A stretch of 64,000 nt of DNA, from the IMG/VR virus record IMGVR_UViG_3300025251_000012, positions 1 through 64,000 of that record, one strand, 5' to 3'. The DNA is from a virus (Duplodnaviria; Caudoviricetes). Within the stretch, counting starts at the first letter, position 1. Every line of letters starts with the position of its first letter. Position numbers and translations under genes: made by a program. Positions 118 to 46,659 of this stretch are shown here, one piece after another. The notes beneath the pieces were generated by a model, which did not search any database, was not told where the DNA came from, and was given only the letters and a program-made list of their open reading frames with translations.

Positions 118-1677
118 ATGAGTGGTACAAATGTGCAAAAACGCGCGCTGCGTGCGAGGGCCGAGGGTCTTCGCATAGAGTTAGCGCGTAGAGATCCAGA
201 CGTATTCATGTCTATGGTGCTCCGCGATGAGGAAACCAGCAAAACGGTTACCCAAGGCCCTTATCATTCCGAATGGCAGAAGCTTCTTACAGACCATAAA
301 CGTTTAATCATTTGGAGCCACGTCGAATCTGGCAAAACGCAGCAGCTTTCAATTGGTCGTGTCATATGGGAACTGGGTAGAGACCCCTCTTTGCGTGTAG
401 TGGTTGTATCGAACACGGGTATGCAGGCTCAGAAGCTTGTTAAGGCCGTAGGCACTTACATTGACGAGAATGAGGCCCTACATAAAATTTTTCCAGGCCT
501 TACGCGCGGTGGTACGTGGACAGGAGACAGTATTACCGTCAAAAGGGACACCCCTGCGAAGGATCCAAGTCTACAAGCGTTAGGTATGCACGGTAATATC
601 CTGGGTGCTCGTATAGATCTGCTGATATTGGACGATATTCTAGACTATGAGAACACTCGAACGGACTATCAACGCCGGGAAGCCCAGAGATGGGTAGAGT
701 CTACACTTTTTGGCCGTTTAACCCGTAGGGCTCGTTGCATTTTCGTAGGCAACGCGTGGCATCGTGAGGACATGATGCACAATTTAGCGGTTCGCCCGGG
801 TTGGAAGGGGTTCAAGTTCCCGGTTGAGACCGACGGCATACCGGTTTGGCCCGATAGATGGCCCGTTGACCGGCTAATAGACAAGCGTGAAGAGTTAGGA
901 CCATTAGAATTTGCACGACAGATGATGTGCGAGGCTCGTGCAGAGGGTCAGAGCCGGTTTAGGCTCGCAGATATAGACCTGTGCAAGATGAAAGGCCGTG
1001 GAAAGAAGCCTTTGCCCTTTCTTAGCGAGGTTCCGCCTGGGTGCTCAACGTTTACAGGCGTAGATTTGGCTATTAGCCGCAAGAAGGGCGCTTCTAAAAC
1101 AGTATTCTTTACATTGCTGATGCACTCCGATGGTACGCGCGAAGTTATAAACGTAGAAGCGGGGCGTTGGACGGCTTCTGAGATTTTAGCTCGTCTTGAG
1201 AATATTCATAAGAGATTTAAGTCTAGACTTGTGGTAGAAAATAACGCAGCACAAGATTTTTTAGTACAGCTTGCAACGGATAAACAGTTGCCCATAACGC
1301 CGCATACAACAGGCCGAAATAAGACACACCCTACCTATGGTGTGGAGTCTTTATCTGCGGAGATGTCGCGGGGGCAATGGATCATCCCGTGTGAGATTAC
1401 TGGCGAGTGCGAGAAAGAAATCCAGGAATGGATTGACCAGATGTTGTATTACGACCCCGCTAGTCACACAGGAGACCATTTAATGGCCTCTTGGATTGCC
1501 CGGGAAGGTAGTCGTAAAGGAACCTTCGCTCATAGAGTCGCGTTCGGCGGTGTTGGCACCCCCGGACCACTACCGGCAGAGGAAAAGCACGCTTATTTAC
1601 ATGCTGATAACCACCCTGATAGGGTTGCAGACAAACTTTGGGATGAACTTTATTCTACTCTAGATTTTGACGCATAA
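118..1677 (+). CDS. terL: Terminase large subunit
   Basis: Walker A HVESGKT, Walker B LLILDD, coupling motif VGNAW, RNase H-like nuclease FTGVDLA, VVENNAAQ and terminal GDHLMASW. Confidence 0.95.
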   Translation: MSGTNVQKRALRARAEGLRIELARRDPDVFMSMVLRDEETSKTVTQGPYHSEWQKLLTDHKRLIIWSHVESGKTQQLSIGRVIWELGRDPSLRVVVVSNTGMQAQKLVKAVGTYIDENEALHKIFPGLTRGGTWTGDSITVKRDTPAKDPSLQALGMHGNILGARIDLLILDDILDYENTRTDYQRREAQRWVESTLFGRLTRRARCIFVGNAWHREDMMHNLAVRPGWKGFKFPVETDGIPVWPDRWPVDRLIDKREELGPLEFARQMMCEARAEGQSRFRLADIDLCKMKGRGKKPLPFLSEVPPGCSTFTGVDLAISRKKGASKTVFFTLLMHSDGTREVINVEAGRWTASEILARLENIHKRFKSRLVVENNAAQDFLVQLATDKQLPITPHTTGRNKTHPTYGVESLSAEMSRGQWIIPCEITGECEKEIQEWIDQMLYYDPASHTGDHLMASWIAREGSRKGTFAHRVAFGGVGTPGPLPAEEKHAYLHADNHPDRVADKLWDELYSTLDFDA

Positions 1678-1753
1678 CTTATATGTTTCAAATACATTGT
1701 GCGCTACTATGCCTTTGACGTAGCGTCAGACACTCGTAGGGAGGTCCAATTAA

Positions 1754-3240: not shown

Positions 3241-3251
3241 GGGTTAATTAT

Positions 3252-3521
3252 ATGGACTACTCCAGCCTTGTGTTTAACCTTGTTGCGTTGATTACGTCCA
3301 TTATGGCCGGTGTTTGGTTTTTAAGTACTCGTTTGGAGCGAGTTAGATTGCAGATTTTAGGACAGACACAAACTTTTACAGAAAAGTTTAAACATATAGA
3401 AACAGAAATAACCCGCTTACGTGAAGCCGTGGACGAAGAACGCGACCGGCGCGCAGAAATATGGCATGAAGTAAATTCATTACGTGAGCGCATTGTAAAA
3501 ATGGAAGTTAGGAGTTCTTAA
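3252..3521 (+). CDS. Small membrane protein (one TM helix plus coiled coil), holin/antiholin-like
   Basis: Start reassigned to ATG 3252 (MDYSSLVFNLVALITSIMAGVWFL); hydrophobic N-terminus then heptad-like region; lies next to the endolysin. Confidence 0.6.
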   Translation: MDYSSLVFNLVALITSIMAGVWFLSTRLERVRLQILGQTQTFTEKFKHIETEITRLREAVDEERDRRAEIWHEVNSLRERIVKMEVRSS

Positions 3522-3523
3522 TC

Positions 3524-3823
3524 ATGTTTGAATTACCAGAAAGTATTATGGAAGTGCCCGCATTGGGCAGTATTGTTATTATTGTGTGCGTTTGTGCACT
3601 TGCATCATACAGTTTGACTTGGTTATTGCGCGGTTTAGTCCCCTTCGCCAAACAGTGGCATTGGAAATTGCGCTTGGCCGCCGTGTTATCGGGAACATTA
3701 GTAGGCTTGATGGTTGCCGGTTACCCGTGGGGCATTGCTACAGGCCTTGCTTCGGGCGGGCTGACCACAAGTGTTGTAGCATTTGTTAAGAACAGACTTA
3801 AAAAGTCCTCGAAAGAGGGGTAG
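3524..3823 (+). CDS. Putative holin (about 3 TM segments, basic C-terminus)
   Basis: 99 aa, three hydrophobic stretches, C-terminal KNRLKKSSKEG; lysis-cassette context. Confidence 0.65.
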   Translation: MFELPESIMEVPALGSIVIIVCVCALASYSLTWLLRGLVPFAKQWHWKLRLAAVLSGTLVGLMVAGYPWGIATGLASGGLTTSVVAFVKNRLKKSSKEG

Positions 3824-3825
3824 TA

Positions 3826-4200
3826 ATGCTTGGCGAGCTTGGATTATCAGAGTGGGTTTTAGGCGGTGCCGGTATTCTTGCTATCATCGCTGCGGTGGCT
3901 ATTCGGGCGTTCAAATCTGAGCGCGCAAAGCGTAAAGTAGCCGAGAAAACCGCTCATATACAGGCTGGCAAAGCAGAGGTGGAGGCAGAGGCTTCTAAGG
4001 GGCGTATTGAAGTTCTAGACGCTAAGAATGCGGCTTTAGAGAAAGCCGAGGACGACGCCGATAAAAAGAAAGCCGAATTAAAAGAAGTTGAGCGTGGGAT
4101 AATTAACTCATCTTTAAAAGGACTTGCGGCTAAATGGAATAAGCACTTTAGCCGCAATAAGTCTGTCGAGGATTCTAATGATGAGGCATCTACTAATTAA
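3826..4200 (+). CDS. N-terminally anchored coiled-coil protein (i-spanin-like)
   Basis: TM WVLGGAGILAIIAAVAI followed by a charged coiled coil; follows the putative holin. Confidence 0.5.
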   Translation: MLGELGLSEWVLGGAGILAIIAAVAIRAFKSERAKRKVAEKTAHIQAGKAEVEAEASKGRIEVLDAKNAALEKAEDDADKKKAELKEVERGIINSSLKGLAAKWNKHFSRNKSVEDSNDEASTN

Positions 4201-4627
4201 AGCAGTTGCTTTTATGGTAGCAACGGCGCTCGTTCTAGGACCGCATATGGTCCTTGCTAACCCACCTTGTGAGGCTGCGTCCTCTTTACAAAAAGGCATG
4301 GAAGCTCCGTGCACGGGTCTTTTGCTGCCAGAGCCTCAAGCTCGCCAAGCGCTGCTTTGTTTAAGTGTAGACTTGCCGAAATTGCATATTGAGTTCGACA
4401 AGTTGAAATTAAAACTTTCTGTTGAAACACAGAGCTTTAAAGAGCTTGTTGCCGTTGAGCGTACTCGCGCAAATAAGCTACAGGCTCTTTTAGATGAAGC
4501 GATTACAATCCCTAAACTAGAAGTTGCGTGGTATGAAAGTCCATACTTTTGGGGCGTTGTGGGCGTTGTTGTTGGAAGCGCTTTAACGTTTGGCGCTGTA
4601 TATGCTGCTACGGAGTTAGGCAAATGA
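4178..4627 (+). CDS. Secreted coiled-coil protein with C-terminal TM helix (spanin-like partner)
   Basis: Start reassigned to ATG 4178 after GAGGA; signal peptide ending VLA-NPP, two Cys, coiled coil, C-terminal FWGVVGVVVGSALTFGAVY; no lipobox. Confidence 0.5.
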   Translation: MMRHLLIKAVAFMVATALVLGPHMVLANPPCEAASSLQKGMEAPCTGLLLPEPQARQALLCLSVDLPKLHIEFDKLKLKLSVETQSFKELVAVERTRANKLQALLDEAITIPKLEVAWYESPYFWGVVGVVVGSALTFGAVYAATELGK

Positions 4628-6324
4628 GTTGGTTACGTAAAATAATTGGCGCTCCGGCAAACACTTCTTCAGATTTAGAAAAATCGCACAAGGGTAAAAC
4701 GCCGCAACCCAAAAGCTGGCAGATTAATCCTGAAGATATCAACTACAGCGTACAGCCAGGATCCCCCGGTAGCCAGGTTCTCACAGAGACACATCCCGGT
4801 ACGATGGGCATGGACTACAGCGCGCTTATGGCGGTGTCGCGTGTTCCAGTTATCGGGGCTATTATACAAACACGTATTCAACAAGTAGCAGAGTTCTGTG
4901 TTCCGCAACCGGATAGATATTCTGTTGGCTATCGTATTAGACTGCGAGATCCAAAAAAGAAAATGACGCGTGCTGCTGAAAGAGAAGCGCACGACATATC
5001 ACGCATGATCGAAGAAGCTGGCGGCCATTTTGGTTACGGCGCTTTCGAGCCTACTATGCGGGCTTTAATGCGGGATTCGCTCGTTTATGATCAATGTAAC
5101 TTTGAAGTTATTCGAGAGCGCGGCGGCAAAGTATGGGGGTTTGTGCCTGTAGATGCCATGACAATACGTAGAGCCGTGCTTAACGACAAAGAGAAGGCAC
5201 AAGGGCGCATTGATTTTGACCACCCCCGGTATGTGCAAGTAGTAAATAACAAGGTTCAAAACGAGTACAAGCTAGATGAGATGGCTTGGGGCGTTAGGAG
5301 GCCAAGGACATGGCTAGGGGCTTCTGGCTACGGTTACCCAGAAATTGAGGAATTGGTTCGTGTCATAACAGACCTACTGAATGCCCAAACGTGGAATAGT
5401 GTAAACTTTACGAACGGTATAAATACCTCAACAATTTTAGCGCTCAAAAGTTCCATGACTGCCGATGTATTTAGAGCTTTTCAACGGCACGTAACATCTA
5501 TGATGGCTGGTGTTAGGAATAGAAGCCGTATTCCCATTGTGCAGTTGAATCCAGATCTTAACGAAGATATCCGCACAGTTGATTTGTCACAAAGCGCAAA
5601 AGACATGGAGTATATGCAGTGGATTGGGTTTTTAGTTAAGATTGTTTGCGCTGTATACCTAATGGACCCGGCCGAACTTGGCTTTGTGTTTGGTACGGAG
5701 GGGCAATCAAATAGCCTCGTAGCACAAGGCCCCACAGAGCGCATTATCGCTTCAAAAGAGCGCGGACTTAGGCCCTTACTACGCGCCGTTGAATCGTGGA
5801 TGAATCGCTATGTAATTTACGCGTACAACGACGATTTTTCGTTGGACTTCGTTGGTTTAGACACAATGACAGAGGAAAAGCGTACCCAGCTAGACCTTAC
5901 GTCTTTGCGCGGTTTTAGAACAGTCAATGAGGTGCGCACAGAGCACGATTTGCCTAAGTTAGACTCTCCTGTGGCGGACATGATTCTTGACCCCACATAT
6001 ATACAGCAAGTCACAGCCTTGTTGCAGCAAGAGCAGCAAGAAGAAATGGGCGGCATGCCTGGTGCCGAACCAGGGCAAGAAGAGGGCGGTGGCTTACCCG
6101 AAGGTATGGATGAAGCCCAAGAAGGGGATACCTATGCCGACTACCCTGGTATGGGCGAACCTATGTTTGGTAATAACATAGATGAAGTTACCCAAGCAGC
6201 AGCGGGGGCTACTGAAAAAGCCATTAAAGACGGCCGCATTTCTGTGGAAGGAACTCTTACAGGTAAGCGCAGGACAGTTTTTACTAAAGCTGGTGTACGG
6301 GCCTACATTATTGAGGTGGACTAG
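4624..6324 (+). CDS. Portal protein
   Basis: Start reassigned to ATG 4624 (ATGA overlap); DSLVYDQCNFE, GYGYPEIE, N.F.NG, SKERGLRPLL, TVNEVR motifs of SPO1/Twort-type portals; acidic C-terminal tail. Confidence 0.92.
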   Translation: MSWLRKIIGAPANTSSDLEKSHKGKTPQPKSWQINPEDINYSVQPGSPGSQVLTETHPGTMGMDYSALMAVSRVPVIGAIIQTRIQQVAEFCVPQPDRYSVGYRIRLRDPKKKMTRAAEREAHDISRMIEEAGGHFGYGAFEPTMRALMRDSLVYDQCNFEVIRERGGKVWGFVPVDAMTIRRAVLNDKEKAQGRIDFDHPRYVQVVNNKVQNEYKLDEMAWGVRRPRTWLGASGYGYPEIEELVRVITDLLNAQTWNSVNFTNGINTSTILALKSSMTADVFRAFQRHVTSMMAGVRNRSRIPIVQLNPDLNEDIRTVDLSQSAKDMEYMQWIGFLVKIVCAVYLMDPAELGFVFGTEGQSNSLVAQGPTERIIASKERGLRPLLRAVESWMNRYVIYAYNDDFSLDFVGLDTMTEEKRTQLDLTSLRGFRTVNEVRTEHDLPKLDSPVADMILDPTYIQQVTALLQQEQQEEMGGMPGAEPGQEEGGGLPEGMDEAQEGDTYADYPGMGEPMFGNNIDEVTQAAAGATEKAIKDGRISVEGTLTGKRRTVFTKAGVRAYIIEVD

Positions 6325-6584
6325 TGAAAATTGTAGTCCAAGAATCCCATTTAGGCGAGTTTGAAACCACCACGGAAGATGAGTTTGCTCGTAAACTTGA
6401 GCGCGGTATTGATGCTCTAAGGCATAGTTGCGGTTCCTCGTCTATTAGTAAAGCAACCCCGAAATTTTTTGGTGAAGTCGTGGTTATTGACAACCTGGCC
6501 CAAATTTTGGCGGGGGCATTTGAGGCCAGATTGACGGCCATGAAAAAAGATATAGTAAAAGCTGTAAAGGATGGCGGTATTTGA
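6324..6584 (+). CDS. Small head-region protein
   Basis: 86 aa ORF coupled to both neighbours; contains ISKA and IVKA motifs. Confidence 0.65.
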   Translation: MKIVVQESHLGEFETTTEDEFARKLERGIDALRHSCGSSSISKATPKFFGEVVVIDNLAQILAGAFEARLTAMKKDIVKAVKDGGI

Positions 6585-7705
6585 GCCTTTCAGACGCCAT
6601 AAACGCGGCTACACGCGCAGTTGCAGAAGCTTTAGAAGCTTTTGGGCATAAGTATTGGGATATTGTAGTTCCCAACATGCGCAACACTGTAGACCCGTAC
6701 TCTTTTGCAATGATCGTGTCTTCTATAATGTCAGAAGAAACAAACCCGGCCACTAGGGCCGCCATGCGAGATTACTCGTTTGATAAGTGGGTTGTTTTAG
6801 TAGATGACGCTGTAGATAGACGCCGTATAACACCAGAACCTGTACAACCTCCACACCCTCCGTCCATCAAAAAACCCACCCCACCTACTACTCGGTCTGG
6901 TGTAGTAGTTGGTGGTCCTACCCACACTACCGTAGGTGGACCCCCTATAGGGGGTCCACCTATACCCACGGCAGCTATAGGTAGTATTTCGCCCGGTGGA
7001 GCGGCTACGCCGCCAATACCCGCGCCGCCAACGTGGTTATTTACACGAGAACGGGAGGCTTGGATTCAAGCACGGGTTAGAGGTGCTGAATACGTGCGGG
7101 GATTAGGCAATTATTTAGACCATAGCGTCAAGAAATTAGTGACGGAATCTTGGAGTGGCGAGGACATAGTTGCCGAAGCCGACCAGGATTTGCGTTATGG
7201 CGCTAGAGAGTTGGTTCGCGTGGAAACAGCGGACGCTTTGGCACATGGCCGCAGTGCTAGGGAGTTAGCCCGTAAGCTTAGAAATGCCACGGAAGACTGG
7301 TCTAGGGACTGGGAACGCATAGCCAGGACAGAACTACAGGGGGCGTATAACGAGGGCCAGGTAATTACGGCCGTAAGAAACGATGGTGTTAAAGCCCGTA
7401 TAGCGCGCGTCCCAGAATCTGATGCTTGCATTCATTGTCAGCGCCTATTTTTAGATGCAGATGGACGTCCAAAGATATTTACTGCCGAGGCTTTGGCGAA
7501 TAACGGTACTAACGTGGGTAGAAAAGCATTTGCGTGGTTACCCACAGTATGGCCGGTGCATCCGAACTGCCGCTGTGATGTGCAGCATGTACCAGAAGGT
7601 TTAGACTTTGATAATAGGTGGCTTTTAACTACTGAGGCAGAGGCGGCCCGTTCGGTGGGCGCAGAGCCCGAAGGTTTGGACATTTTAGGCGTGGAGGTTG
7701 CGTAG
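6581..7705 (+). CDS. MuF / SPP1 gp7-like minor head protein with a Pro-rich linker
   Basis: RIARTE..GAYNEG, CxxC (ACIHC) and HPNCRC signature; directly downstream of portal. Confidence 0.88.
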   Translation: MSLSDAINAATRAVAEALEAFGHKYWDIVVPNMRNTVDPYSFAMIVSSIMSEETNPATRAAMRDYSFDKWVVLVDDAVDRRRITPEPVQPPHPPSIKKPTPPTTRSGVVVGGPTHTTVGGPPIGGPPIPTAAIGSISPGGAATPPIPAPPTWLFTREREAWIQARVRGAEYVRGLGNYLDHSVKKLVTESWSGEDIVAEADQDLRYGARELVRVETADALAHGRSARELARKLRNATEDWSRDWERIARTELQGAYNEGQVITAVRNDGVKARIARVPESDACIHCQRLFLDADGRPKIFTAEALANNGTNVGRKAFAWLPTVWPVHPNCRCDVQHVPEGLDFDNRWLLTTEAEAARSVGAEPEGLDILGVEVA

Positions 7706-7881
7706 TGGCTACTAAGAAGAAAGTTTCCGATGGGGCCAATATCGGCAAGGGTCTTACGACCCAGACAGTCATACCTATGTACTGGACTTTGACAAAAAGC
7801 CAAAAGGCCGATGTTGATAAGGCCATTGGGCGTTTTAGTAAGGCTATTAAAGAGGGCCGGGAGCCTAAGATCGATGAATAA
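7705..7881 (+). CDS. Small basic protein (58 aa, not in the ORF track)
   Basis: GTG overlaps the MuF stop (TAGTG); MATKKKVSDGANIGKGLTTQ...EPKIDE; its end overlaps the start of the helicase gene. Confidence 0.6.
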   Translation: MATKKKVSDGANIGKGLTTQTVIPMYWTLTKSQKADVDKAIGRFSKAIKEGREPKIDE

Positions 7882-10800
7882 GTCGATAGGCAGATTTAGC
7901 GCTTTAATGTCGGGGATTGCTGCGGCACCTAAGCCCGGATCTTTCACAGAGCTTGTAGAAAAAGCTGCTCGTGGCGAAATGCGCATGGGGCATAAGTATG
8001 AAATGCGCATTCCTATGGGCGTGGATGAAAACGGTAAGCCCAAATACAAATACATATACGCCAAACAACCACATTGGCGCGGCAAATTCATTCATGAAAT
8101 GCTTGAGGAAGGGTCTTCTGTAAGACTTCCAGAGCCGGATGGTGTTGTACACATTGTTGGTGAGGACGAGAAAGGTAATATTCGTCTTAAAAAAGAATCT
8201 ACAGGCGAAGAGATTACGGTAGATAAAGAAGAACTTTCAGGCCGTTTAAAGGCTATGCACGCAGAGAAAATTTCGCACACTCTTTCAATGCGCGAAAAAG
8301 AACTCAAAGCTGTTGTTAAATACGGCACATTAAAGCAGCGACAAATTGTGTTCGCAGAAGCCTCGTCGTTTGGTTTGGCCATACCACCGGGCTACCATTT
8401 GGATGGCACTGAAAAAGCAGAAGCCGAAGATGAGGCTGCTGATCCTAAAGAGTTGATGAATCATGCAATTACTTTACACGAAAAGGACGTACCAGAGGTA
8501 GATGTGACGCTTGTGCCGCCGCACGTTTCTACCTTTATAAATCCAGATGAAGAACGGGGTATTCGTGGGCTGTTTCAGCATCAACTTGAGGGCGTTGCGC
8601 GTATTATATCAAGTTGGCTTAAACGGGATGGTTTTCTTCTTCAGGATGACGCTGGATTGGGTAAGACCCTTACGTGTTTAGCCGCTATTCTCACCAACGC
8701 GGGTAGGCGGAATCTCATAGTTGTTCCTACACGAGGTAAGGACAATTTAAAGAACGAGGTGTGGAAACGCGACGGCCAGGTTTTGGGGTTGGACATAAAA
8801 GATGTCTCTGAGTCTTTTGATCCGGCCGATGAAAACAATGCCCGCCAGAATCACGACGGTAATTACATTTGCTCGTATGATGAATTATACGACAAGAAAG
8901 TCACGATAGACCCAGACACGGGTGAGGAAATTGAAACCTTTGAATTACGGCCAGAGTTTGCGAGCGGTAATTGGGACACTATTACATTTGATGAGTGCCA
9001 CAATATGGCTAACGCCGCTTCTCTTAGAACCCAAGCGGCGATGCTCGTGCAAGAGAATGCTAAGAAGGTTTTGTATTGCTCTGCCACCCCCTTCACAAAT
9101 ATATCTGACATGCACTACTTACGCCGTTTGTCGGGTAATAAACTGAAGAACGATCCCGGCTGGTTTAGTACTGGCGCAGAGTTTGTAAAGTGGGCAGTAA
9201 AAGCGGGTGCGCGTACTGCAAAGACGCTAACGCCCGTTGGTGACGTACCCCAAAAGATTGTTAATCCTAATACGCCTAAACCACTTGTGGTTGCCGCCGC
9301 ATTGATGCACGTCGGCGGCAGTAGTATTAAGCGCGTTCCGCAATTATCGAAGTCTTTAGATAGTCGGTTCCACCGTACTGAAACAGTCAGTTTAGCAGAC
9401 GATCATCAAACAGCGTTTAAAACCGCAGATAAAATCTTTGACATTGCGAAAGAAGCTGGCGTCGAAGCCCGTAGAATAGGAGCCTCTAAAGCCCTCTGGA
9501 ATCGCCAGATGTGGGAGATTAGCAAACTAGATGAAACCGTCGCCATGGCCGAAAAGTCGCTTAAAGAGAACCCAAATGGGCAAGTGGCAATATTTACGGC
9601 GCATGTAAAACACGACCACAATGTTCTTTATGGTTTAGAAGGTGCCATTAGAAAGCGTGTAGAGGACGGACACCTTTCCGCCGAAAAAGCCGAGGCGCAC
9701 ATTGCAGAGTTAAAACGTCATGCAGATAGCCTGCCTAAAGTTGACGTGCACCAAGAACTATTGAACCGCTTAGGTGGGCACGACAAAGTAGCCATGATTC
9801 ATGGCCGGTCTGATGAGCTAGGCGCTAAAACACACGACGTGGGTAAAGGGGCTACTTGGGAATCTGTTGCTAAGAAAAACAAAATGACAGTTGCCGAGCT
9901 TAGAAACTTAAATCGCGGCGTCGATATTAATAGTGCTAAAAGTCTAAAGGTTGCAAAAGCTCCCACATCAATAGAGGCCCAGAAAGCCTACCAAACCGGG
10001 CAGAAGCGTATAGTCATCGGCTCTATGGCCAAAGCAGGTACGGGGCTTTCGTTCCACGACGTGGTTGGTAATAGCCAACGCCACCAAATTAATATGAGCT
10101 TGCCCTATTCTGGCGTGGAATTTCAGCAAGTATTCGGCCGTAGCCACCGTCTTGGCTCTAAATCAAATACAACTATGACGTGGGTTAGGGGCGATTCTGA
10201 AACGGAAAACAGGGTATCTTCTATTGTCAGCACAAAGCTACAGTCTATGGGCGCGTTATCTACAGGGGATCCAGGTAAGTTAGTCTCTAAAGAACTACTA
10301 ATGAACTATGACCATAGTTCAAGTACCAACCCAAATCACTTTGCGGATTTGTTAGGCGCAAACCAAGACCCGGCACTAGAACGTGCTCGTGAACACGCCA
10401 AAGACACATGGGATTGGTCTACCGAGCGTATTAAAGCGGGTGGTGACCCACAAGCCGAGATGGGCCAACTAATTACTTCTGATTTAGATCGCGGTAAAGA
10501 GCAGCAAAGTCGCAGGGCGGTAGGCCAATTAATTCATTCAGGCTTCCATGTTCGAGTTACCGACGACAATAAGTTTGCTATTTCGGGTATGCCCCCAGGA
10601 TCAACTGGGCATAACTACTTCACAGGAGCCAAACGCAGCGCAAAGTATGACAACTCTTCAGGTGAGTGGACTGTTTCTAACCTTGATTCGTTTAGAGGCG
10701 TGGCTAGGCGCACAGGAGCCCATAAGAAAGAAGGTACGACTACTCCAGAAGCGATGACCAATGAGCATCTGGACGCAATACACGGCTCAGAGAAAGCGAA

Positions 10801-11599
10801 GAAGATGCGGCAGCGCTTGGCCAATAAAACAGGTACCCGCATTGGCGATACTGTGCCTGATAAAAGCGCTGACACAAGAGTTAAGCGGACGAAGAAGAGT
10901 AGGTTCGGGGATCTTGTAGAGAAAGCTGTAGGGTCCAAAAAAGAGGCCATATCCAAAAAGATTAAACTTCTTATGGAAGAAGGGTATCCTCAAAAGCAGG
11001 CTGTAGCCATCGCATTGCAAATGGACCGCGACGGCAAGTTGGCGTCGTTCACAGAGCTTGTTGATACTTATAAAGGGCGTATTTATCCACCCGGAACTAA
11101 GCGTGTGCGTAAAACAGGTGTTTGGGTTAAACAGGTAGACAACTCGTGGACGAAAGTTAAAGACGACAGTAAGACGCCTGCACCACCAGCCCCAGCCCCA
11201 GCTAGACGGGAAAAGCCCGAAGAGATTGAAGAAGTAAAAAACAAAAAACCGCGTAAAGGCGACGAGAAAAAATTTAAACTTAATAAGCCAACCGTTTTGG
11301 GCTTATCAGATTTTGCAGACTTTAAAAAACTAGCCGCCGCGTTAGCGGGTATGCTTGCTAAAAGATTGAAGTCTAAAGAGGCTTTAGTGTGTGTTTATAA
11401 TAAACACACTAAACACAAGATTGAAGAGTTGTCACTTGGTGAGAATTATGCCCTGGTATTTGTGTCTAAAATAACTCATATGTATGACGACGCCGATAAA
11501 TACCTTGTGGTTATAAAAGACAAAGAGACTGACGCAGTTTTGGCAGATAACCAAGGTGCAGACGGTAAAATTCGTGTTTTAGCGGGGGAGGGTAAGTAA
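7874..11599 (+). CDS. Large multidomain protein: Strawberry-notch-like SF2 helicase with inserted LysM domain and C-terminal small modules
   Basis: GFLLQDDAGLGKT (motif I), FDECH (II), SAT (III), AGTGLSFHD, LPYS.VEFQQVFGRSHR (VI); LysM-like HDVGKGATWESVAKKNKMTVAELRNLN; start reassigned to ATG 7874. Confidence 0.85.
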   Translation: MNKSIGRFSALMSGIAAAPKPGSFTELVEKAARGEMRMGHKYEMRIPMGVDENGKPKYKYIYAKQPHWRGKFIHEMLEEGSSVRLPEPDGVVHIVGEDEKGNIRLKKESTGEEITVDKEELSGRLKAMHAEKISHTLSMREKELKAVVKYGTLKQRQIVFAEASSFGLAIPPGYHLDGTEKAEAEDEAADPKELMNHAITLHEKDVPEVDVTLVPPHVSTFINPDEERGIRGLFQHQLEGVARIISSWLKRDGFLLQDDAGLGKTLTCLAAILTNAGRRNLIVVPTRGKDNLKNEVWKRDGQVLGLDIKDVSESFDPADENNARQNHDGNYICSYDELYDKKVTIDPDTGEEIETFELRPEFASGNWDTITFDECHNMANAASLRTQAAMLVQENAKKVLYCSATPFTNISDMHYLRRLSGNKLKNDPGWFSTGAEFVKWAVKAGARTAKTLTPVGDVPQKIVNPNTPKPLVVAAALMHVGGSSIKRVPQLSKSLDSRFHRTETVSLADDHQTAFKTADKIFDIAKEAGVEARRIGASKALWNRQMWEISKLDETVAMAEKSLKENPNGQVAIFTAHVKHDHNVLYGLEGAIRKRVEDGHLSAEKAEAHIAELKRHADSLPKVDVHQELLNRLGGHDKVAMIHGRSDELGAKTHDVGKGATWESVAKKNKMTVAELRNLNRGVDINSAKSLKVAKAPTSIEAQKAYQTGQKRIVIGSMAKAGTGLSFHDVVGNSQRHQINMSLPYSGVEFQQVFGRSHRLGSKSNTTMTWVRGDSETENRVSSIVSTKLQSMGALSTGDPGKLVSKELLMNYDHSSSTNPNHFADLLGANQDPALERAREHAKDTWDWSTERIKAGGDPQAEMGQLITSDLDRGKEQQSRRAVGQLIHSGFHVRVTDDNKFAISGMPPGSTGHNYFTGAKRSAKYDNSSGEWTVSNLDSFRGVARRTGAHKKEGTTTPEAMTNEHLDAIHGSEKAKKMRQRLANKTGTRIGDTVPDKSADTRVKRTKKSRFGDLVEKAVGSKKEAISKKIKLLMEEGYPQKQAVAIALQMDRDGKLASFTELVDTYKGRIYPPGTKRVRKTGVWVKQVDNSWTKVKDDSKTPAPPAPAPARREKPEEIEEVKNKKPRKGDEKKFKLNKPTVLGLSDFADFKKLAAALAGMLAKRLKSKEALVCVYNKHTKHKIEELSLGENYALVFVSKITHMYDDADKYLVVIKDKETDAVLADNQGADGKIRVLAGEGK

Positions 11600-11815
11600 A
11601 TGAGTCTTAAGGAAGTGCCTAAGACGCACCCACCGATTTGTTGTGATAATTGCGGGTTGCCATTAACTTCTCTCACTCGAAGTGGGCGTACTAAAGTATA
11701 TATTAAGTCTAGAGCCCTTGTTATTAGGGATGACGGCGGAATGGAAATCCCGTGTCATCATTGTAAACAATCAACTAATTTGCCTTTTTTAGCGCCTAAA
11801 GTGTTGACAAAGTAA
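11600..11815 (+). CDS. Small zinc-ribbon protein, Mu Com-like
   Basis: 71 aa with CDNC and CHHC pairs and EIPC (the Com family has EIKC). Confidence 0.6.
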   Translation: MSLKEVPKTHPPICCDNCGLPLTSLTRSGRTKVYIKSRALVIRDDGGMEIPCHHCKQSTNLPFLAPKVLTK

Positions 11816-11860: not shown

Positions 11861-11904
11861 GGCGGTGGCGCAAGAACCTCTTGCAGCACCGCCTTTTTTT
11901 ATTT
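11861..11904 (+). terminator. Intrinsic terminator / possible attenuator before the prohead protease gene
   Basis: GGCGGTG-gc-GCAAGA-acc-TCTTGC-ag-CACCGCC followed by TTTTTTTATTT. Confidence 0.8.
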
Positions 11905-11916
11905 GGGGAGAGTCCG

Positions 11917-12681
11917 TTGACTAGCTCAGAACAAAACTCAGCATTTAGGCTCTGGTCGCCTTTTAATATTGTTGAGAAGGGCGATTCAGATACAACCCGT
12001 CGTGGTCGTATTGAAGGCATCGCTTCATCTGAAGCTATGGACGCGGATAAAGAGATCGTAGTCCAAAAAGGTTTAGACTGGACTTGGTTTCTTACCAAGG
12101 GCTTTGTTTCTTTAGAGCACCCACTTGGTGTTAATAATATCGTTGGTGAGCCGGTTGAGGTATCACCAATTACCCTCGATGGTGTTGAAGCCACTAAGCT
12201 AACTTGCGATTTGTTGCTTGATGATCCGGCAGCCAAGTCTATTTATGACAAGGCGCGGACCCTTAAGAAAGCAGATTCAAATCGTAGGCTTGGGTTTTCT
12301 ATCGAGGGCCGGGTTCTTGATCGAGATGGGGATACTATTAATAAGGCCGAAGTAGTCTCTGTGGCTATTAGCGCCGTACCTAAAAATCCCCTCACTTGGT
12401 TTGAACCTATTATGGCTTCTATGTTTTGGCGTAGCCTCGTAGGTTATCCTCAACATGGTATCCCGCATTCTGGCGAGTTTGCACCTTTGGCTACACAAAG
12501 TATGCAGGGCGTTCCGTCAATTGCTTCCTATGGGGCGGGCGAGAAGCAGTTTTCTTTGGTTGATTCTTTGACCAAAGAAGATCTTCTTACTGCCCGTCTT
12601 TTAAAGAAGTTGCCACAGATGAGTTGGTCTCAAGGGTTGGCGGCTATTGAAGAAATTCTTTCAAATAAGGAGAAAGGCTAA
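11917..12681 (+). CDS. Prohead maturation protease (HK97/S78-like fold)
   Basis: GIASSEAMDADKEIV..KGLD, VSLEH (His), GFSIEG (Ser), VAISAVPKNP; start reassigned to TTG 11917 after GGGGAG because the upstream TTG lies inside the terminator. Confidence 0.9.
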   Translation: MTSSEQNSAFRLWSPFNIVEKGDSDTTRRGRIEGIASSEAMDADKEIVVQKGLDWTWFLTKGFVSLEHPLGVNNIVGEPVEVSPITLDGVEATKLTCDLLLDDPAAKSIYDKARTLKKADSNRRLGFSIEGRVLDRDGDTINKAEVVSVAISAVPKNPLTWFEPIMASMFWRSLVGYPQHGIPHSGEFAPLATQSMQGVPSIASYGAGEKQFSLVDSLTKEDLLTARLLKKLPQMSWSQGLAAIEEILSNKEKG

Positions 12682-13472
12682 TGAGCACTGCTACTGCGAT
12701 GCTAACAAAACTTACTGAAGCTGGCCTTAGCGAGGATAAATCTCGTGCCATTATTAAGGCTGAAATCGCTTCGGGCAGTATTACTGCCGACGGTGACTTT
12801 GTTGTAGAAGAGGATGTTATTGGAAAAGCTGACGTGAAGGCTATTGAAGCCGCTGCTACAGCGATTTCCAAGGCAATGGAAGTTGGTAACAAAAAAGCCG
12901 ACACAATTGCTAAGGCAGATTCTGAAGAAAAAGAAGAGTACGACGAAGCCGAAAGTTCGGACGCTGGCGACGACGAAGAGGAAGAAGAGGCAGGCGCTGA
13001 GAAAAGTCTGAACTCTTCGGAGGACTACGACGTAGTTGCAATCCTCTCGAAAGGCGCAGATCAAATTCTTGATTCTGTGGAAACGCAGAACAAGACGCTT
13101 GCCAAAGGCTATCTGGCTATTCGGGACACGTTCTCGAACTTTGCCGACATCCTTAATAAGGCAAGTGAAAGAATCGCCACGTTGGAAGGTACTGTTGATT
13201 CATTGCATAAAGCTTTGGGCCAACCGGTTCCCCCACGGAGCGTATCTGGTGCGGTGGAAGCCGTTCCTAGTCCTGGTGAGGCGGCTATCGCCAAAGCCAA
13301 TATTGATAACTCCACATTCTCTACTCCAGAGTTGATGGCAAAGGCGAAGTCTATTATGGCTGACACCAAAGATTCAACCCGGTTGTATCAGCTTTCAATG
13401 GCAGTGGCAGAGTTGGAAAGTGGCGCGCAGCCCGAGTCAGTGGCCGTGCGTTACGGAATTGCAGTCCATTAA
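12681..13472 (+). CDS. Capsid scaffolding protein
   Basis: Between protease and capsid; acidic and helical; about ten [ILM]-x-K-[AG] motifs. Confidence 0.8.
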   Translation: MSTATAMLTKLTEAGLSEDKSRAIIKAEIASGSITADGDFVVEEDVIGKADVKAIEAAATAISKAMEVGNKKADTIAKADSEEKEEYDEAESSDAGDDEEEEEAGAEKSLNSSEDYDVVAILSKGADQILDSVETQNKTLAKGYLAIRDTFSNFADILNKASERIATLEGTVDSLHKALGQPVPPRSVSGAVEAVPSPGEAAIAKANIDNSTFSTPELMAKAKSIMADTKDSTRLYQLSMAVAELESGAQPESVAVRYGIAVH

Positions 13473-13493: not shown

Positions 13494-15038
13494 ATGAATC
13501 TCGATACGCTTACCAGTATGGCTGGACAGAGCATTGACGTTGCCCAACTTTCGGACCTCAACAAAGCTCTGCGTGCCTCTGGAAATACTCTTGCGAAAGC
13601 AAATGTCGGCACGGTACAACAAGGCCAAGCCTTTTCGTCCGTTGCTACGAGTGAACTTGCTCCGCTTGTTCCTCAATCTATTCAAAATACTCTAGACTCT
13701 GCGACATATACGGAGCAGGCGGTTAAGTTCTGGGCGGGTCTTGCTAAGACGGCTGTTTCCAGCACGCTGCATGAGTCCGTTGTCGTCAGTAACTACGGTT
13801 CCATGAATTTGGATCCGTGGATTCCTGAAGGTGGCGCAGGGGCAGAATCTAATGGTGACTATGCTCGCCAAGTGGTGCAGATTAAATTCTTGGCCGAACG
13901 TAGGGAAATTAGCGATGTGGCCACGATGGTCGGCATCGTTGGTTATCAAGGGGTTAGTCGTCAAGGTCTCGCACAGCAGACCATTGATGGAACCCGCGCC
14001 CTTATGGGTAAACTTGAGCGCTCTTTGTTCATGGCAGACTCTGATCTGACAAGCCTCGCGTTTGACGGTTTGTACAAACAAGTTTCAGGCCATGCGTTTC
14101 AGCAAACTACAACCGATGTTGCTGGTTCGGCTAATGCGCGCACGCAGTTGTCGGTTCCTGATCCGTCTAATAATAAAAACTATACGGATATGGCTGGAGC
14201 CGCTCTTACGGCCCAACGGCTTATCGAAGAAGTGTACACTATTTCTTCTGCACCGAACTTCGGTATGGTCAATACGATTCTGGTTGATCCCCGAGTGTAT
14301 TCGTCCTTGGTTGTTCAAGCAACGACTTCGTTTGCGTTGTTTGATCCTTCCCAGGCTGCTCGCGGACAACTGATCTTCGGTACCGAGGGACTTCACATCG
14401 CCGGTCCTGGTGGGATGATTCCCATCACATCTTGCCCGTTGATGATGCCGCCCCAGACGCTTCCGGGGGCAAGTGTTGGTGCTACTTCGGGCTCAGCGTT
14501 GCGCCCGGATGTTCCAGATCTTTTGGCAGCGAGTACTAATCGCGCAAAAGCTGGTGTTGAAAAGGGTTTCACTGCTAGTACGGCAGGAGCCTTCACTTAT
14601 AAAGTGGTCGGGGTTAACGCGAACGGCTTTGCTGTAAGCAGCGCTTCGGATCAAATTACTGTAGCTAGTGGCGACGTTGCTCAAATTGCAATTGACCCAG
14701 AGGCAACAACCGAGGCGGCTTATTACCGTTTGTATCGCACGCCGGATACAAAAACTGAAGATGCGGACATGCAGTATGTTTGGTCATACCCAAAATCAGC
14801 GGGCGGCGAAACTACCATCATTGATGATAATCGTCATGAGCCCGGAACGGCCCCAGTATTTTTCCTCCAGCAAACGCCGGATGTTATGTATTGGGCGCAG
14901 TTGCTTGATTTCTTGCGGCGGCCTTTGGCACAAGTCCAAACTTCTATCCCGTTTCTCTTGATGCTTTTTGGAGCACTTCATGTTAAAGTACCGACCAAAT
15001 GTTCAGTACTTGACAATGCTTCGCTAACAGCGGCGTAA
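13494..15038 (+). CDS. Major capsid protein (HK97 fold, SPO1/Twort type, with a beta-sandwich insertion)
   Basis: AGGAG RBS; LVPQSIQNTL..AT, EGG.G.ES...Y.R....IKFL, LERSLF.ADS....LAFDG, C-terminal Y.AQL....R.PLA.....IPFLLMLFGAL.V. Confidence 0.92.
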   Translation: MNLDTLTSMAGQSIDVAQLSDLNKALRASGNTLAKANVGTVQQGQAFSSVATSELAPLVPQSIQNTLDSATYTEQAVKFWAGLAKTAVSSTLHESVVVSNYGSMNLDPWIPEGGAGAESNGDYARQVVQIKFLAERREISDVATMVGIVGYQGVSRQGLAQQTIDGTRALMGKLERSLFMADSDLTSLAFDGLYKQVSGHAFQQTTTDVAGSANARTQLSVPDPSNNKNYTDMAGAALTAQRLIEEVYTISSAPNFGMVNTILVDPRVYSSLVVQATTSFALFDPSQAARGQLIFGTEGLHIAGPGGMIPITSCPLMMPPQTLPGASVGATSGSALRPDVPDLLAASTNRAKAGVEKGFTASTAGAFTYKVVGVNANGFAVSSASDQITVASGDVAQIAIDPEATTEAAYYRLYRTPDTKTEDADMQYVWSYPKSAGGETTIIDDNRHEPGTAPVFFLQQTPDVMYWAQLLDFLRRPLAQVQTSIPFLLMLFGALHVKVPTKCSVLDNASLTAA

Positions 15039-15348: not shown

Positions 15349-15388
15349 AGTGTGGGGGGTCACAACGAGACCCCCCACACTTTATTTT
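15349..15388 (+). terminator. Intrinsic terminator after the capsid genes
   Basis: 12-bp stem AGTGTGGGGGGT / ACCCCCCACACT, 9-nt loop, then T-rich TTATTTT. Confidence 0.85.
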
Positions 15389-44463: not shown

Positions 44464-46659
44464 GTGTCTTATAAACCTCTGTTTCCTATTGATAGTGACG
44501 AGGCCGAAGAACGGCCTACAGAGCTAACTATAGGTGACTTCTCCACTACAAGGTTTGTAAGTCTTCTTAAGAAGCTTGGTATTAAGGGCAGCATAAAAGT
44601 GGGTAAACCAGGGAAAATATCTGTGTACCCATTTAATCTAACGCCGCGACTTGGCCGCCTGTACCAAGAACAGAAAAAGAGTTTGAACTTTTGTGACCTA
44701 GTTAAGGCTGCTAACTTTGTGGCTCCACCAAAAGCGAACGCGGAAGCCGCTGCGGAAGCACCGGTTGGCACGGTTCATTATTGGAAAACAGGGCCGCATA
44801 AGAAAGTTGCGCCGGGGAAGTGGGTGCCAGTTACAGAAGAACACGCTAAAAAGTTAATGGAAACGAAGCAAAGACCTCCGCAAAGGGTTAACGACCCAGA
44901 CAAGGAATGGGGCAATGATCTCGATAAGAAAAATGATGATGGCACGGTCACGCTTTACCACCGGACTAGCGCTGAAGGAGCGCAGGGTATTACAGAAAGC
45001 GGTACGTTCTATTCAAAAGAATACGATGGTTCGGCGTATTTCTCTACACGTGATCATGGGGCGGCTTCCAGTTACGGCGACCACCTTATCGCGGTAGACA
45101 TTGATCCGGGTTACGTCCATTTAAATGATGAGTTTTCTGATGGGGAAGTGCATGTACGTGTAACCCCCGAAAACCACCAGAAGATGCGGAACTTGCAGGT
45201 TTTAGAGGGCGGTGCATTTGAGGACGTTGTAGAAGGGTTTGAGTACGCAGACAAGCTGGCGATGTGGGTAGAAGACCAGGGTATTGAAGACGCAGCCACT
45301 TTTGCCGCAGCAGATCTAGGGGGCACTGGCGCTAAGGATACTAACGAGGTCACGACGCACATAGAGAATAATACAAGTGGGCAAATAGACAGGGCCGGTG
45401 CAAGGGCTGAACTTTCCAAAACAGGCGACTGGCATTACCTCCATAAAGTTTCGGTAGACGCTGTAGACACAAAGACGCACGGGGACGTTGAGCCTAGTGG
45501 TGAAGAAGACCTTGATGTGCCGATTGTGATCAACGCCAAGGGCGAAGTTATTGATGGCCGTCACCGGGTAGAGTTAGCGCGAAAGCGGGGTATCAAAGAG
45601 TTACCAGCTTACATGCCAGCATCAAAGTACTGGGAAGATAACTTAGAGGTAGATGAACCCGACCGGGGCGTATTTTTCGGTGACGAAAAGAAGCCACCCC
45701 CCGAAGGGTGGACGATGGAGGACGGGCTTAAAAAGCTTTCTGAAACGCCGTCCGACGACTTCATGGAATCGGGTTATGGCACAGAACCGGCCGATTATTG
45801 GCTTCATATTGAAGACGCTATTGAAAACGTGTTCGATGGCGCAAAATTACCGGGTGGCTACAAAGCGCGGGATTATAATGTAACCCCGTTTCAAGTTAGC
45901 GAGGATGATTACACGTATCGTGGTGTAGGGTCTGAAAAATACACTCAGGGGGTTGAGGTAAGTGGCGATATAGATGTAGTTGACACTAAAACCGGGGTGA
46001 CACTAGATACGATTGGTACGTATCACCGCGAGTTCACAATTAATTCCGAAGGCGACTTGGAAGTGCACCATGGGTCGCTATTTCTTAATGCTCACGTCCA
46101 AGGCGAAGGAATCGGATCCGCCTTTATAGCTCATAGCCTCGAATCCTATGGCCCATTAGGAGTAAAGAAAATAACCATAGAGCCCGCAGAGGTTGGTGCT
46201 TATGTTTGGGCACGCCTCGGGTTTAGTTGGGGAAGCCCCGACAAAGCCGAGCGGAATCTTATCCCCTTTGTGGCCCGGGAAATTGCGGAAGAAGTTAATA
46301 GGGTGAACCGGGGCACAGAGGGGTATGTTGACATGACATACGACGAAGCTGTGAAGATAGCGAGGAAGCATAAAGAACCTCATGATCTAGCCAGACTTCA
46401 TGTTGGCGAGTTACACCTAGGGAAAGAGCTTCTGATGCACAATTCGCGCTTGTGGAAGAAAATGGGTGGTGCCGCAATGGATATCCCAAGTAAAGAACAT
46501 ACCCGCCTTACAGAACATTTGAGTAAAAAGACAGCGGGGCGGCTGCAAAAAGCGGGCAAAAAAGGCGGCAAAAAGAAACAGATCTCACTTGGCGAAGATA
46601 TGTTAAATGATGCAGATGCCTTTGGAGAGGCTATAAACCTGTCCAGAGAGGCGGAGTAG
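44464..46659 (+). CDS. Polyvalent protein: ADP-ribosyltransferase-like + ParB/Srx-like + GNAT acetyltransferase domains
   Basis: TLYHRTS...I.ESG.F....AYFST...A..YG..LI.VDI (ART-like); PIVIN.KGEVIDGRHRVELARKRGIKELPAY (ParB-like); QGEGIGS.......GVKKITI....VGAYVWARLGF (GNAT). Confidence 0.75.
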   Translation: MSYKPLFPIDSDEAEERPTELTIGDFSTTRFVSLLKKLGIKGSIKVGKPGKISVYPFNLTPRLGRLYQEQKKSLNFCDLVKAANFVAPPKANAEAAAEAPVGTVHYWKTGPHKKVAPGKWVPVTEEHAKKLMETKQRPPQRVNDPDKEWGNDLDKKNDDGTVTLYHRTSAEGAQGITESGTFYSKEYDGSAYFSTRDHGAASSYGDHLIAVDIDPGYVHLNDEFSDGEVHVRVTPENHQKMRNLQVLEGGAFEDVVEGFEYADKLAMWVEDQGIEDAATFAAADLGGTGAKDTNEVTTHIENNTSGQIDRAGARAELSKTGDWHYLHKVSVDAVDTKTHGDVEPSGEEDLDVPIVINAKGEVIDGRHRVELARKRGIKELPAYMPASKYWEDNLEVDEPDRGVFFGDEKKPPPEGWTMEDGLKKLSETPSDDFMESGYGTEPADYWLHIEDAIENVFDGAKLPGGYKARDYNVTPFQVSEDDYTYRGVGSEKYTQGVEVSGDIDVVDTKTGVTLDTIGTYHREFTINSEGDLEVHHGSLFLNAHVQGEGIGSAFIAHSLESYGPLGVKKITIEPAEVGAYVWARLGFSWGSPDKAERNLIPFVAREIAEEVNRVNRGTEGYVDMTYDEAVKIARKHKEPHDLARLHVGELHLGKELLMHNSRLWKKMGGAAMDIPSKEHTRLTEHLSKKTAGRLQKAGKKGGKKKQISLGEDMLNDADAFGEAINLSREAE

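Follow-up and report, generated by a model that had tools for sequence, protein, structure and literature searches.

The genome of an uncultured tailed phage (Duplodnaviria; Caudoviricetes), IMG/VR record IMGVR_UViG_3300025251_000012, carries among the genes involved in head formation a gene encoding a large ATPase of the Strawberry-notch (Sno) type. The window, that is the whole stretch of DNA analysed here, corresponds to positions 1-64,000 of this 78,443-bp record, which is rated 100% complete. The ATPase gene belongs to a block whose genes encode, in this order, the portal protein, an 86-amino-acid (aa) product, a MuF-like minor head protein, a 58-aa product, the ATPase, a zinc-ribbon-like protein, the prohead protease, the scaffold and the major capsid protein. 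The junctions involving the small open reading frames (ORFs) overlap or abut, and the sole strong terminator-like hairpin found on the + strand of the block by a terminator scan lies at 15349-15381, after the capsid gene. An earlier note, made from the letters of this DNA, had placed the ATPase gene between those of MuF and of the prohead protease; this is indeed its place, with two small ORFs (the 58-aa ORF and the zinc-ribbon ORF) also lying there.

The long frame of the ATPase (7811-11599, + strand) comprises 1262 aa and its probable start, ATG 7874, leads to a protein of 1241 aa. This ATG is almost certainly the true start since a GGAG is located 10 nucleotides upstream, the stop of the 58-aa ORF overlaps it and a database copy of 1241 aa begins there; the ORF 7874-11599 listed by the earlier note is therefore real. 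Both Pfam hidden Markov models (HMMs) of the Strawberry-notch pair exceed their cut-offs. Helicase_C_4 (58.2 bits vs a cut-off of 30.5, E 1.4e-15) matches residues 649-831 of the 1262-aa frame through its profile positions 5-163 of 271 only, and AAA_34 (54.4 bits vs a cut-off of 27, E 1.2e-14) matches residues 263-441. The SNF2-rel_dom model (37.8 bits, E 1.5e-9) and the generic Helicase_C model (13.8 bits) score lower and the pair also outscores the generic SNF2, ResIII and DEAD models, in agreement with the assignment to the Strawberry-notch family that had been proposed. The motifs of helicase superfamily 2 (SF2), which had been described as complete, are all found: motifs I (DDAGLGKT, 8645-8668), II (FDECHN, 8987-9004), III (SATP), V (KAGTGLSFHD) and VI (QQVFGRSHRLG, 10124-10156) are intact, and the K, DE.H and SAT columns are invariant among the relatives of the ATPase (alignments A1 and A3).

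The core of the protein (residues 209-1019 of 1241, window 8498-10930) was modelled by AlphaFold2 (AF2) from a 25-row alignment, with a predicted local distance difference test (pLDDT) of 82 and a predicted template modelling score (pTM) of 0.77. Foldseek relates this model to RapA, CSB, Chd1, Ino80, ISWI, Rad54, Mot1 and ZorD (E 1e-15 to 1e-11), the top match being RapA (8spg, E 1.9e-15) with a sequence identity of about 14%. The ATPase thus displays the features by which members of the SWI2/SNF2 superfamily are recognized, namely a pair of RecA-like lobes, motifs I, II (DExH), III and VI in intact form, and a fold of Snf2 type. Because of the Strawberry-notch match in Pfam, of the intact motifs and of a modelled fold like those of RapA, CSB and Chd1, the ATPase is probably a SWI2/SNF2-type double-stranded DNA (dsDNA) translocase and not a classical unwinding helicase. 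The earlier term 'helicase' thus holds insofar as the protein is an SF2 ATPase, but it is likely a misnomer given a fold of SWI2/SNF2 dsDNA translocase. Pfam detects no methylase domain in the protein, which, as had been stated, lacks the methylase of DarB from phage P1. The C-terminal winged-helix domain of Sno proteins (named in PMC5512222) was not detected either, the region that follows the ATPase not having been specifically compared with winged helix-turn-helix domains. Among other searches, NCBIfam gave only DrmD and ZorD, far under cut-off, and phmmer found nothing in PDB sequences at E<=0.01. Of 50,697 phage records, none matched the gene by megablast, and tblastn of the ATPase gave one helicase of a Gordonia phage and no P1 record at E<=1e-5.

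Beside the Snf2 ATPase, which is its one clear enzymatic domain, the protein includes an N-terminal barrel module, a LysM-like insert and a C-terminal domain (coordinates in Table 1). The N-terminal module, in an AF2 model based on a 7-row alignment (pLDDT 72), is made of a helix carrying the first copy of a repeated motif, a basic beta-hairpin of a type called A below, a small beta-barrel and long helices. In the homologues P0007-P0014 (homologous proteins bear P numbers and loci L numbers), motif copy 1 is kept before the HKY hairpin. The Y, P, G and Y.Y columns of this hairpin are invariant in alignment A2, and giant proteins encoded nearby in L001 and L003 have this hairpin too. The best structural matches of the barrel, obtained with VIA-align, are weak: the N-terminal RNA-polymerase-interacting domain of CarD (Z 4.7, root-mean-square deviation 1.8 over 49 residues) and the C-terminal Tudor domain of UvrD (Z 3.8-3.9); Foldseek gives no match to the N-terminal module at E<=0.001. 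In some giant homologues, this module is repeated up to three times. The LysM-like insert, located in lobe 2, is modelled as beta-alpha-alpha-beta (model residues 444-486, pLDDT of 77-91 in 10-residue blocks) and reaches 21.3 bits vs a Pfam cut-off of 20.9 only when a 67-aa piece is scanned alone. Its absence from P0003-P0006 and, by inspection, from P0007-P0012 suggests a recent acquisition. The region that follows the ATPase is modelled with a pLDDT of 82-90 up to model residue 740, its small domain displaying a beta-beta-helix-beta-beta-helix order. Eight of the nine closest homologues have an equivalent of motif copy 2, and three of these eight terminate there. Pfam gives nothing at E<=1 for the N-terminal 228 aa, the 200 aa following the ATPase and the C-terminal 239 aa, and the C-terminal domain of about 110 aa has no usable match in the ESM Atlas.

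An exhaustive HMMER search of 1.84 billion cluster representatives recovered 46 relatives of the ATPase at E<=1e-30, and all their readable contigs are phage-like. According to BLASTP and tblastn, the block portal-small ORF-MuF-small ORF-ATPase-zinc ribbon-protease-scaffold-capsid is also present in at least five other types of phage (L004, L005, L006/L007, L013, L014 and L015/L016), with identities of 56-61% for the portal, 38-51% for MuF, 46-51% for the protease, 44-49% for the capsid protein and 30-37% for the ATPase. Other loci display other orders: portal, ATPase, LPD1 giant, ddrB-ParB giant and protease in L003, ATPase between portal and MuF in L012, and ATPase adjoining terminase or portal genes in L001 and in contig ERZ27254861. 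Globally, the ATPase gene is a fixed gene of the head-morphogenesis operon in the whole phage clade. The scan of one genome for each of 185,579 prokaryote species yielded a single locus, L012 (CAYHCW010000001.1, 72.5 kb, from an uncultured Gemmatimonas sp. bin). This locus carries similar phage genes (portal with 42% identity, ATPase, MuF with 52%) and looks like a phage contig inside a metagenome-assembled genome bin, which provides at best a faint hint about the host. As this single phage-like locus is all that the scan of one genome per species yielded, the ATPase family seemingly belongs to phages that are not found as prophages.

Homologues found at E<1e-50 carry, in the same chain, domains of LPD1 (P0015), ddrB-like ParB (P0019 and P0021), Zeta toxin (P0019), topoisomerase I or MuF-like type. 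The MuF-like N terminus that precedes the ATPase in P0045 is related to the MuF protein of the window (BLASTP 4e-5, HPNCR motif included). In P0009 (L005:1067-5161), the ATPase is extended at its C terminus by a topoisomerase IB (PF01028), and in L006 (1318-6474) a topoisomerase IB is part of a 1718-aa protein that also carries a DUF2924 and is encoded between portal and MuF. A link between motor and topoisomerase thus appears, from these sequences, to be recurrent inside head modules. As a separate observation made by eye, P0029 and P0041 harbour intein-like inserts of several hundred residues that split motif I between GLGK and TN, and a gap in the tblastn alignment of L017 matches the position of this insert.

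Regarding the neighbours of the ATPase gene, the MuF protein of the window is 38-51% identical to the product of the gene located upstream of the ATPase gene in L004, L005 and L006. At the place matching that of the 58-aa ORF, L004 and L006 have ORFs of 54-57 aa, whose likeness, a T.IP.Y..L....D.A pattern, was seen by eye. L007 and L015/L016 have an ORF in the matching place, with identities of 51% and 40%, respectively, to the zinc-ribbon ORF, whose product may be a partner of either the ATPase or the protease. The prohead protease, for which nothing was found in Pfam (E<=1) or NCBIfam and nothing usable in PDB, is classed only as phrog_1028. No cultured phage is closely related to this one: its capsid protein shares 22-26% identity with capsid proteins from myoviruses of the Herelle, Felix-O1 and Thermus types. 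The phage also carries baseplate genes, which, together with a capsid protein like those of Herelle- and Felix-O1-type phages, suggests a contractile tail. No methylase is coupled to the ATPase: the Dam and N6_N4 methylase genes are separate from it, in the other arm of the genome, and PF02384 (EcoKI/TaqI-type N6_Mtase) has no match in the whole 78-kb record.

Table 1. Genes, protein parts and other features cited in the text, in window coordinates or, where so marked, in coordinates of the full record
Feature	Position	Strand	Evidence
Terminase large subunit gene	118..1677
Portal gene, opening the head block	4549..6324	+	Phage_portal 2.7e-16; phrog_12 8e-41; 56% identity to the portal of L004
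MuF-like minor head protein gene	6581..7705	+	Phage_Mu_F 1.1e-4 (under cut-off); several PHROG head-morphogenesis families; HPNCRC motif
Conserved 58-aa ORF; start overlaps MuF stop, stop overlaps ATPase start	7705..7881	+	Read from sequence
Strawberry-notch-type ATPase gene	7874..11599	+	Pfam AAA_34 and Helicase_C_4 over cut-offs; AF2 model; Foldseek
N-terminal leader, 23 aa before motif copy 1	7874..7942	+	Low-confidence, unstructured in the AF2 model
Motif copy 1, FTELVEKA, short predicted helix ending in K-A	7943..7966	+	Modelled helix 24-32
Type A basic beta-hairpin, GHKY..R.P....KYKYIY	7988..8059	+	Modelled strands 42-50 and 56-62
Small Tudor/SH3-like beta-barrel, followed by long helices to about 8380	8099..8248	+	AF2 pLDDT 80-92
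ATPase lobe 1: Q-like motif, I, Ia, II, III	8570..9100	+	Pfam; motifs in sequence
ATPase lobe 2: motifs IV to VI	9584..10156	+	Helicase_C_4; motifs V and VI in sequence
LysM-like insert (about 45 aa) within lobe 2, lineage-specific	9833..9964	+	Pfam LysM; AF2 model
Conserved post-ATPase region, long helices then small alpha/beta domain	10157..10903	+	Aligned in nine homologues
Motif copy 2, FGDLVEKA, C-terminal edge of the conserved unit	10904..10927	+	Read from sequence; homologue alignment
Short helical segment like phrog_2423 (function unknown)	10934..11023	+	phrog_2423 at 4.4e-8
Motif copy 3, FTELVDTY (without K-A), and type B basic hairpin (PPGTKRVRKTGVWVKQVDNSWTKV)	11048..11158	+	Sequence
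Pro/Ala linker and C-terminal domain of about 110 aa	11174..11596	+	No Pfam match at E<=1
71-aa zinc-ribbon-like ORF (CxxC...CxxC), beginning right after the ATPase stop	11600..11815	+	Sequence
Prohead protease gene	11881..12681	+	phrog_1028 at 2e-32; 51% identity to the L006 homologue
Scaffold gene (263 aa), long acidic stretch	12681..13472	+	C-terminal half 49% identical to the L006 scaffold
Major capsid protein gene	13494..15038	+	phrog_752 at 4.5e-48
Second tag-bearing protein, 731 aa, among baseplate and fibre genes	44464..46659	+	FCDLVKAA at 44689; type B hairpin 44761-44832
Dam methylase	record 52820-53317	-
SbcC/SbcD-like pair	record 60745-63451	-
N6_N4 methylase	record 63546-64265	-
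DnaB-like helicase	record 70766-71467	-
Second SF2 helicase	record 72827-73120	-

The repeated motif of the ATPase had been interpreted by the earlier note as putative cleavage motifs that bracket the helicase core. The positions given for the three copies are exact, as is the 14-bp repeat common to copies 1 and 3 (7943 and 11048). The identity of these two copies was considered as a trace of recent duplication or conversion and set aside as weak, since it spans five codons of identical peptide. In all six frames of the 64 kb, F-x-[DE]-L-V-[DEK] has four matches, three of them in the ATPase and one at 44689, in a second multidomain protein that is itself a cargo candidate. The closest homologues carry [FYW]-x-x-L-[LIV]-x-K-A just before the N-terminal hairpin and again about 270-300 residues past motif VI, and the shortest of them (P0007, P0008 and P0011) terminate at the C-terminal copy. 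Each copy of the motif is then followed by a basic beta-hairpin, either of type A (GHKY..R.P....Y[RK]Y.Y) or of type B (P.GT.[HR].W..G...K....G.W..V). The motif is therefore beyond chance and recurs at both boundaries in diverged homologues, but it is better called a helix-plus-hairpin tag or junction module than a cleavage motif.

This unit is also found outside the ATPase. The second protein of the window that bears it, encoded at 44464, has no Pfam domain at E<=1; its residues 72-140 share 43% identity with residues 908-974 of P0009, which correspond to the C-terminal junction, and a unit of the copy-3 type occurs in both proteins. In the head block of L004, the closest relative (1352-5510 and 9942-10748), the tag is borne by a 300-aa protein, by GNAT-like and S-adenosylmethionine (SAM)-lyase-like proteins, two labels that correspond to weak Pfam matches, and by the protein encoded after the ATPase. 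It takes there the form of a K-[AG]-K-G helix and a P.GT...W..G...K...G.W..V hairpin, which lead the protein or are contained in it. In L001 and L003, the helix-plus-hairpin leads, or repeats inside, giant LPD1 and ddrB-ParB proteins. Because it leads, or lies inside, varied candidate cargo proteins of the window, L004, L001 and L003, the unit appears to be a mobile module restricted to candidate cargo proteins, and it is quite probably a cargo signal of some kind.

A candidate cleavage pattern, [LIVM]-x-K-[AS], is shared by the tag and by structural proteins of the head. The scaffold contains 8 such sites vs 1.14 expected, a sevenfold excess that none of 500 shuffles reaches (0/500 with 8 sites). 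The pattern is also found twice in the capsid protein, within residues 1-40, and is matched by L-V-E-K-A, as present in motif copies 1 and 2. Furthermore, one L-M-A-K-A-K-S element of the scaffold resembles the cargo motif of relatives (L-L-A-K-A-K-K-G and L-L-L-K-A-K-G). Such sequences would be consistent with a single protease having three kinds of substrate: a scaffold that it degrades, a capsid protein that it trims and cargo that it cleaves after K. By eye, the L006 scaffold shows about six [LIVM]-x-K-[AS] sites and a similar acidic stretch. A T4-like L-x-E site, which the L-V-E of copies 1 and 2 also fits, was dropped as a general rule since the homologues keep K-A and not E. That the tag includes a cleavage site, located between K and A of L-V-E-K-A, is a tentative proposal, rated a little below an even chance. 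The homologues that end at the C-terminal copy are explained no less well by an element for docking or targeting than by a cut site. The complete proposal, according to which the helix F-x-[DE]-L-[LIV]-x-K-A and the basic hairpin form a portable tag that recruits cargo into the procapsid and carries a prohead-protease site, is more tentative still. Such a tag might mimic the L-[MI]-A-K-A-K-S element of the scaffold or bind its acidic stretch. The complex prediction carried out on the N-terminal 75 aa of the ATPase with the capsid protein and the scaffold has a score of 0.00, which speaks neither for nor against binding.

The repeated motif could also be merely structural, that is the first helix of a duplicated module that marks domain boundaries and has no role in cleavage or targeting. 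The helix is indeed modelled as continuous with the N-terminal module, the same syntax is found at internal junctions of giant proteins and copy 3 is devoid of K-A. However, the module is confined to candidate cargo proteins and leads small enzymes that are otherwise unrelated, and the K-[AS] pattern is common to the scaffold and to the N-terminal region of the capsid protein. The copies are also more alike within a protein than between proteins (34% vs 23% identity of the 8-mers, permutation p ~0.02), which is weak evidence as the 8-mers were hand-picked. This purely structural role, which stands independently of the three alternatives concerning the ATPase itself, is unlikely.

As for the ATPase, the gene context makes its packaging and injection likely. 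The explanation favoured here, which we hold to be moderately likely as a whole, is that it is a Snf2 motor made late, packed in the capsid and injected, which acts on the incoming genome by clearing or remodelling host proteins. The ATPase would be made late, together with the head proteins, and its N-terminal leader or tag would recruit it into the procapsid. The prohead protease would possibly trim it after the L-V-E-K of copies 1 and 2; the protein would thereby lose a leader of 30 aa, and about 225 aa would be released from its C-terminal end. Stored with DNA in the head and ejected into the next host, the motor would then travel along the incoming genome, where it would clear or remodel bound proteins of the host, for example RNA polymerase, nucleoid proteins or complexes involved in restriction or another defence. 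The LysM-like insert would be consistent with a motor that crosses the cell wall, or is anchored there, as it is ejected. In a bolder version, the Tudor-like N-terminal module would make the motor an injected remodeller of host RNA polymerase comparable to RapA.

Several points weigh against this explanation. Presence in virions, processing and injection are deduced from context, the phage being uncultured and having no close isolate. Gene position can mislead, and a late enzyme could act in the producer cell. Helicase_C_4 is matched over part of its length and the Sno-specific C-terminal part is not seen; the LysM score of the insert is marginal, and the Tudor-like label of the modelled barrel is a weak lead, its Z score of 4.7 corresponding to noise-level likeness. 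With respect to cleavage, motif copy 1 is modelled within a helix, at low confidence, copy 3 (FTELVD) lacks the K-A dipeptide and proteins that end at the motif would leave nothing to release. Over its full length, the ATPase shows no enrichment in [LIVM]-x-K-[AS] (6 sites vs 4.0 expected). Furthermore, K-[AS] is a short pattern, and the scaffold could be rich in it owing to coiled-coil or helical periodicity.

The ATPase might instead be a late helper that is not packaged, a translocase that removes RNA polymerase, nucleoid proteins or other obstacles from the replicated DNA of the phage ahead of the terminase, or that aids head filling, and stays in the producer cell. Snf2-type motors do strip proteins from DNA, the best fold matches of the ATPase include RapA, CSB and Mot1, and its gene is read in the same direction as packaging and head genes and is coupled to them. 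However, the subfamily includes fusions with MuF, ddrB-ParB, LPD1 and Zeta toxin, domains typical of delivered proteins, and the leader tag is also borne by small proteins, GNAT and SAM-lyase-like, for which no part in packaging is obvious. Moreover, the gene sits between portal and protease, where P1 keeps darB (PMC9024508). Such a helper is thus rather improbable.

Another possibility, to be considered improbable, is that the ATPase is packaged and serves as a genome-entry motor, anchored in the envelope through the LysM-like insert and pulling DNA in, the topoisomerase IB of relatives relieving torsion. In its favour are the position of this insert in lobe 2, the dsDNA translocase fold and the topoisomerase IB of relatives, which in P0009 is fused to the ATPase and in L006 belongs to the product of a gene lying between those of portal and MuF. 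However, the insert is absent from the inspected homologues and therefore cannot be the core mechanism, ATP is available in the cytoplasm only, and the baseplate genes and the Herelle-/Felix-O1-like capsid protein point to a contractile tail; contractile-tailed phages are not known to need an internal motor. Finally, an ordinary replication or recombination helicase that happens to sit in the late region is very improbable in spite of the 'DNA helicase' label given by PHROG to the best-matching families, since separate genes for a DnaB-like helicase and a second SF2 helicase lie with SbcCD-like genes in the opposite-strand replication arm, so that the ATPase is not the replicative helicase of the phage, while its own gene is fixed in the head operon, at a position conserved across phages with 30-37% ATPase identity, and its fold is that of a Snf2 translocase and not of an unwinding helicase.

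If the ATPase is packed and injected as favoured above, its interest lies in the timing of its action. Proteins packed in the head and injected act before any phage gene is expressed, and therefore constitute a first line against restriction and other defences. To our knowledge, few injected head proteins are known outside P1, T4, N4 and giant phages. The tag, if real, would make it possible to predict cargo from genome sequences and could serve for loading capsids with foreign proteins. The set of injected effectors of this clade would then be readable from sequence: the Snf2 motor, the protein encoded at 44464, the GNAT and SAM-lyase-like proteins, and the LPD1 and ddrB-ParB giants. The links of the motor with topoisomerase IB or with the LysM-like insert suggest a role on or around the incoming DNA. 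The value of the finding would increase if the tag proved to be a readable signal of capsid targeting and processing.

Compared with known eukaryotic and bacterial Strawberry notch proteins, the ATPase shares AAA_34 and Helicase_C_4, both over cut-off, but its N-terminal module, LysM-like insert and C-terminal tail are foreign to that family. RapA of E. coli, which has Tudor-like N-terminal domains, is the best structural match of the core, and the N-terminal module of the ATPase weakly resembles the RNA-polymerase-binding Tudor domains of CarD and UvrD. However, the identity with RapA is about 14%, no RapA-specific domain was matched in the ATPase and the Tudor-like resemblance (Z 4.7) is at noise level. 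In T4, the internal proteins enter the prohead by means of a short N-terminal leader, which the prohead protease cuts off (PMC9024508, PMC9026906). The likeness with the 23-30-aa leader of the ATPase, which ends in a candidate protease site, is one of layout alone and implies no claim of homology. Unlike the T4 capsid targeting sequence, the tag described here has a folded basic hairpin and is also found in internal and C-terminal positions.

The polyvalent proteins defined by Iyer, Burroughs, Anand, de Souza and Aravind in 2017 were proposed to be packed in capsids and injected, and include 'a few instances' of Strawberry-notch-like SWI2/SNF2 ATPases (PMC5512222). The ATPase resembles them by its head-module context, with portal-terminase packaging, and by the fusions of its subfamily to LPD1, ddrB-ParB, Zeta toxin and MuF. 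It differs from them as a Sno-type ATPase that has no enzymatic partner domain and is a fixed, single head-operon gene in its clade. In the portions of PMC5512222 covered by text searches, nothing like the helix-plus-hairpin tag or the HKY/Tudor-like module was found, and Pfam, which holds many of the LPD models of that paper, gives no match to the N-terminal module. Three points appear to be new: a clade in which the head operon has a methylase-less ATPase of Sno type as a fixed gene, the sharing of the helix-hairpin tag and the Tudor-like module that goes with it, and the LysM-like insert. None of them was met in those portions of PMC5512222 or in the part of the literature that the searches reached.

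The closest parallel is DarB of P1, the archetype of the methylase-helicase dyad of polyvalent proteins (PMC5512222), which the earlier note rightly cited as a packaged precedent. DarB, which defends against restriction, is a head protein believed to be delivered into the cell. It has an N-terminal capsid-targeting signal, a reporter being directed to the capsid by the first 30 residues alone, and darB lies directly beside the portal and protease genes (prt and pro) (PMC9024508). Like DarB (about 250 kDa), the ATPase is a large SF2-type protein encoded close to portal and prohead-protease genes, and its 23-aa leader is placed like the 30-aa targeting signal of DarB (PMC9024508). It differs from DarB by the lack of any methyltransferase domain, and in particular of an EcoKI/TaqI-like methyltransferase fusion, and by its belonging to the Strawberry-notch branch, with a Tudor-like N-terminal module and a LysM-like insert. 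The concept of capsid-delivered cargo of polyvalent or DarB type is already published; within it, this methylase-less ATPase would correspond to the helicase half of DarB acting without methylation.

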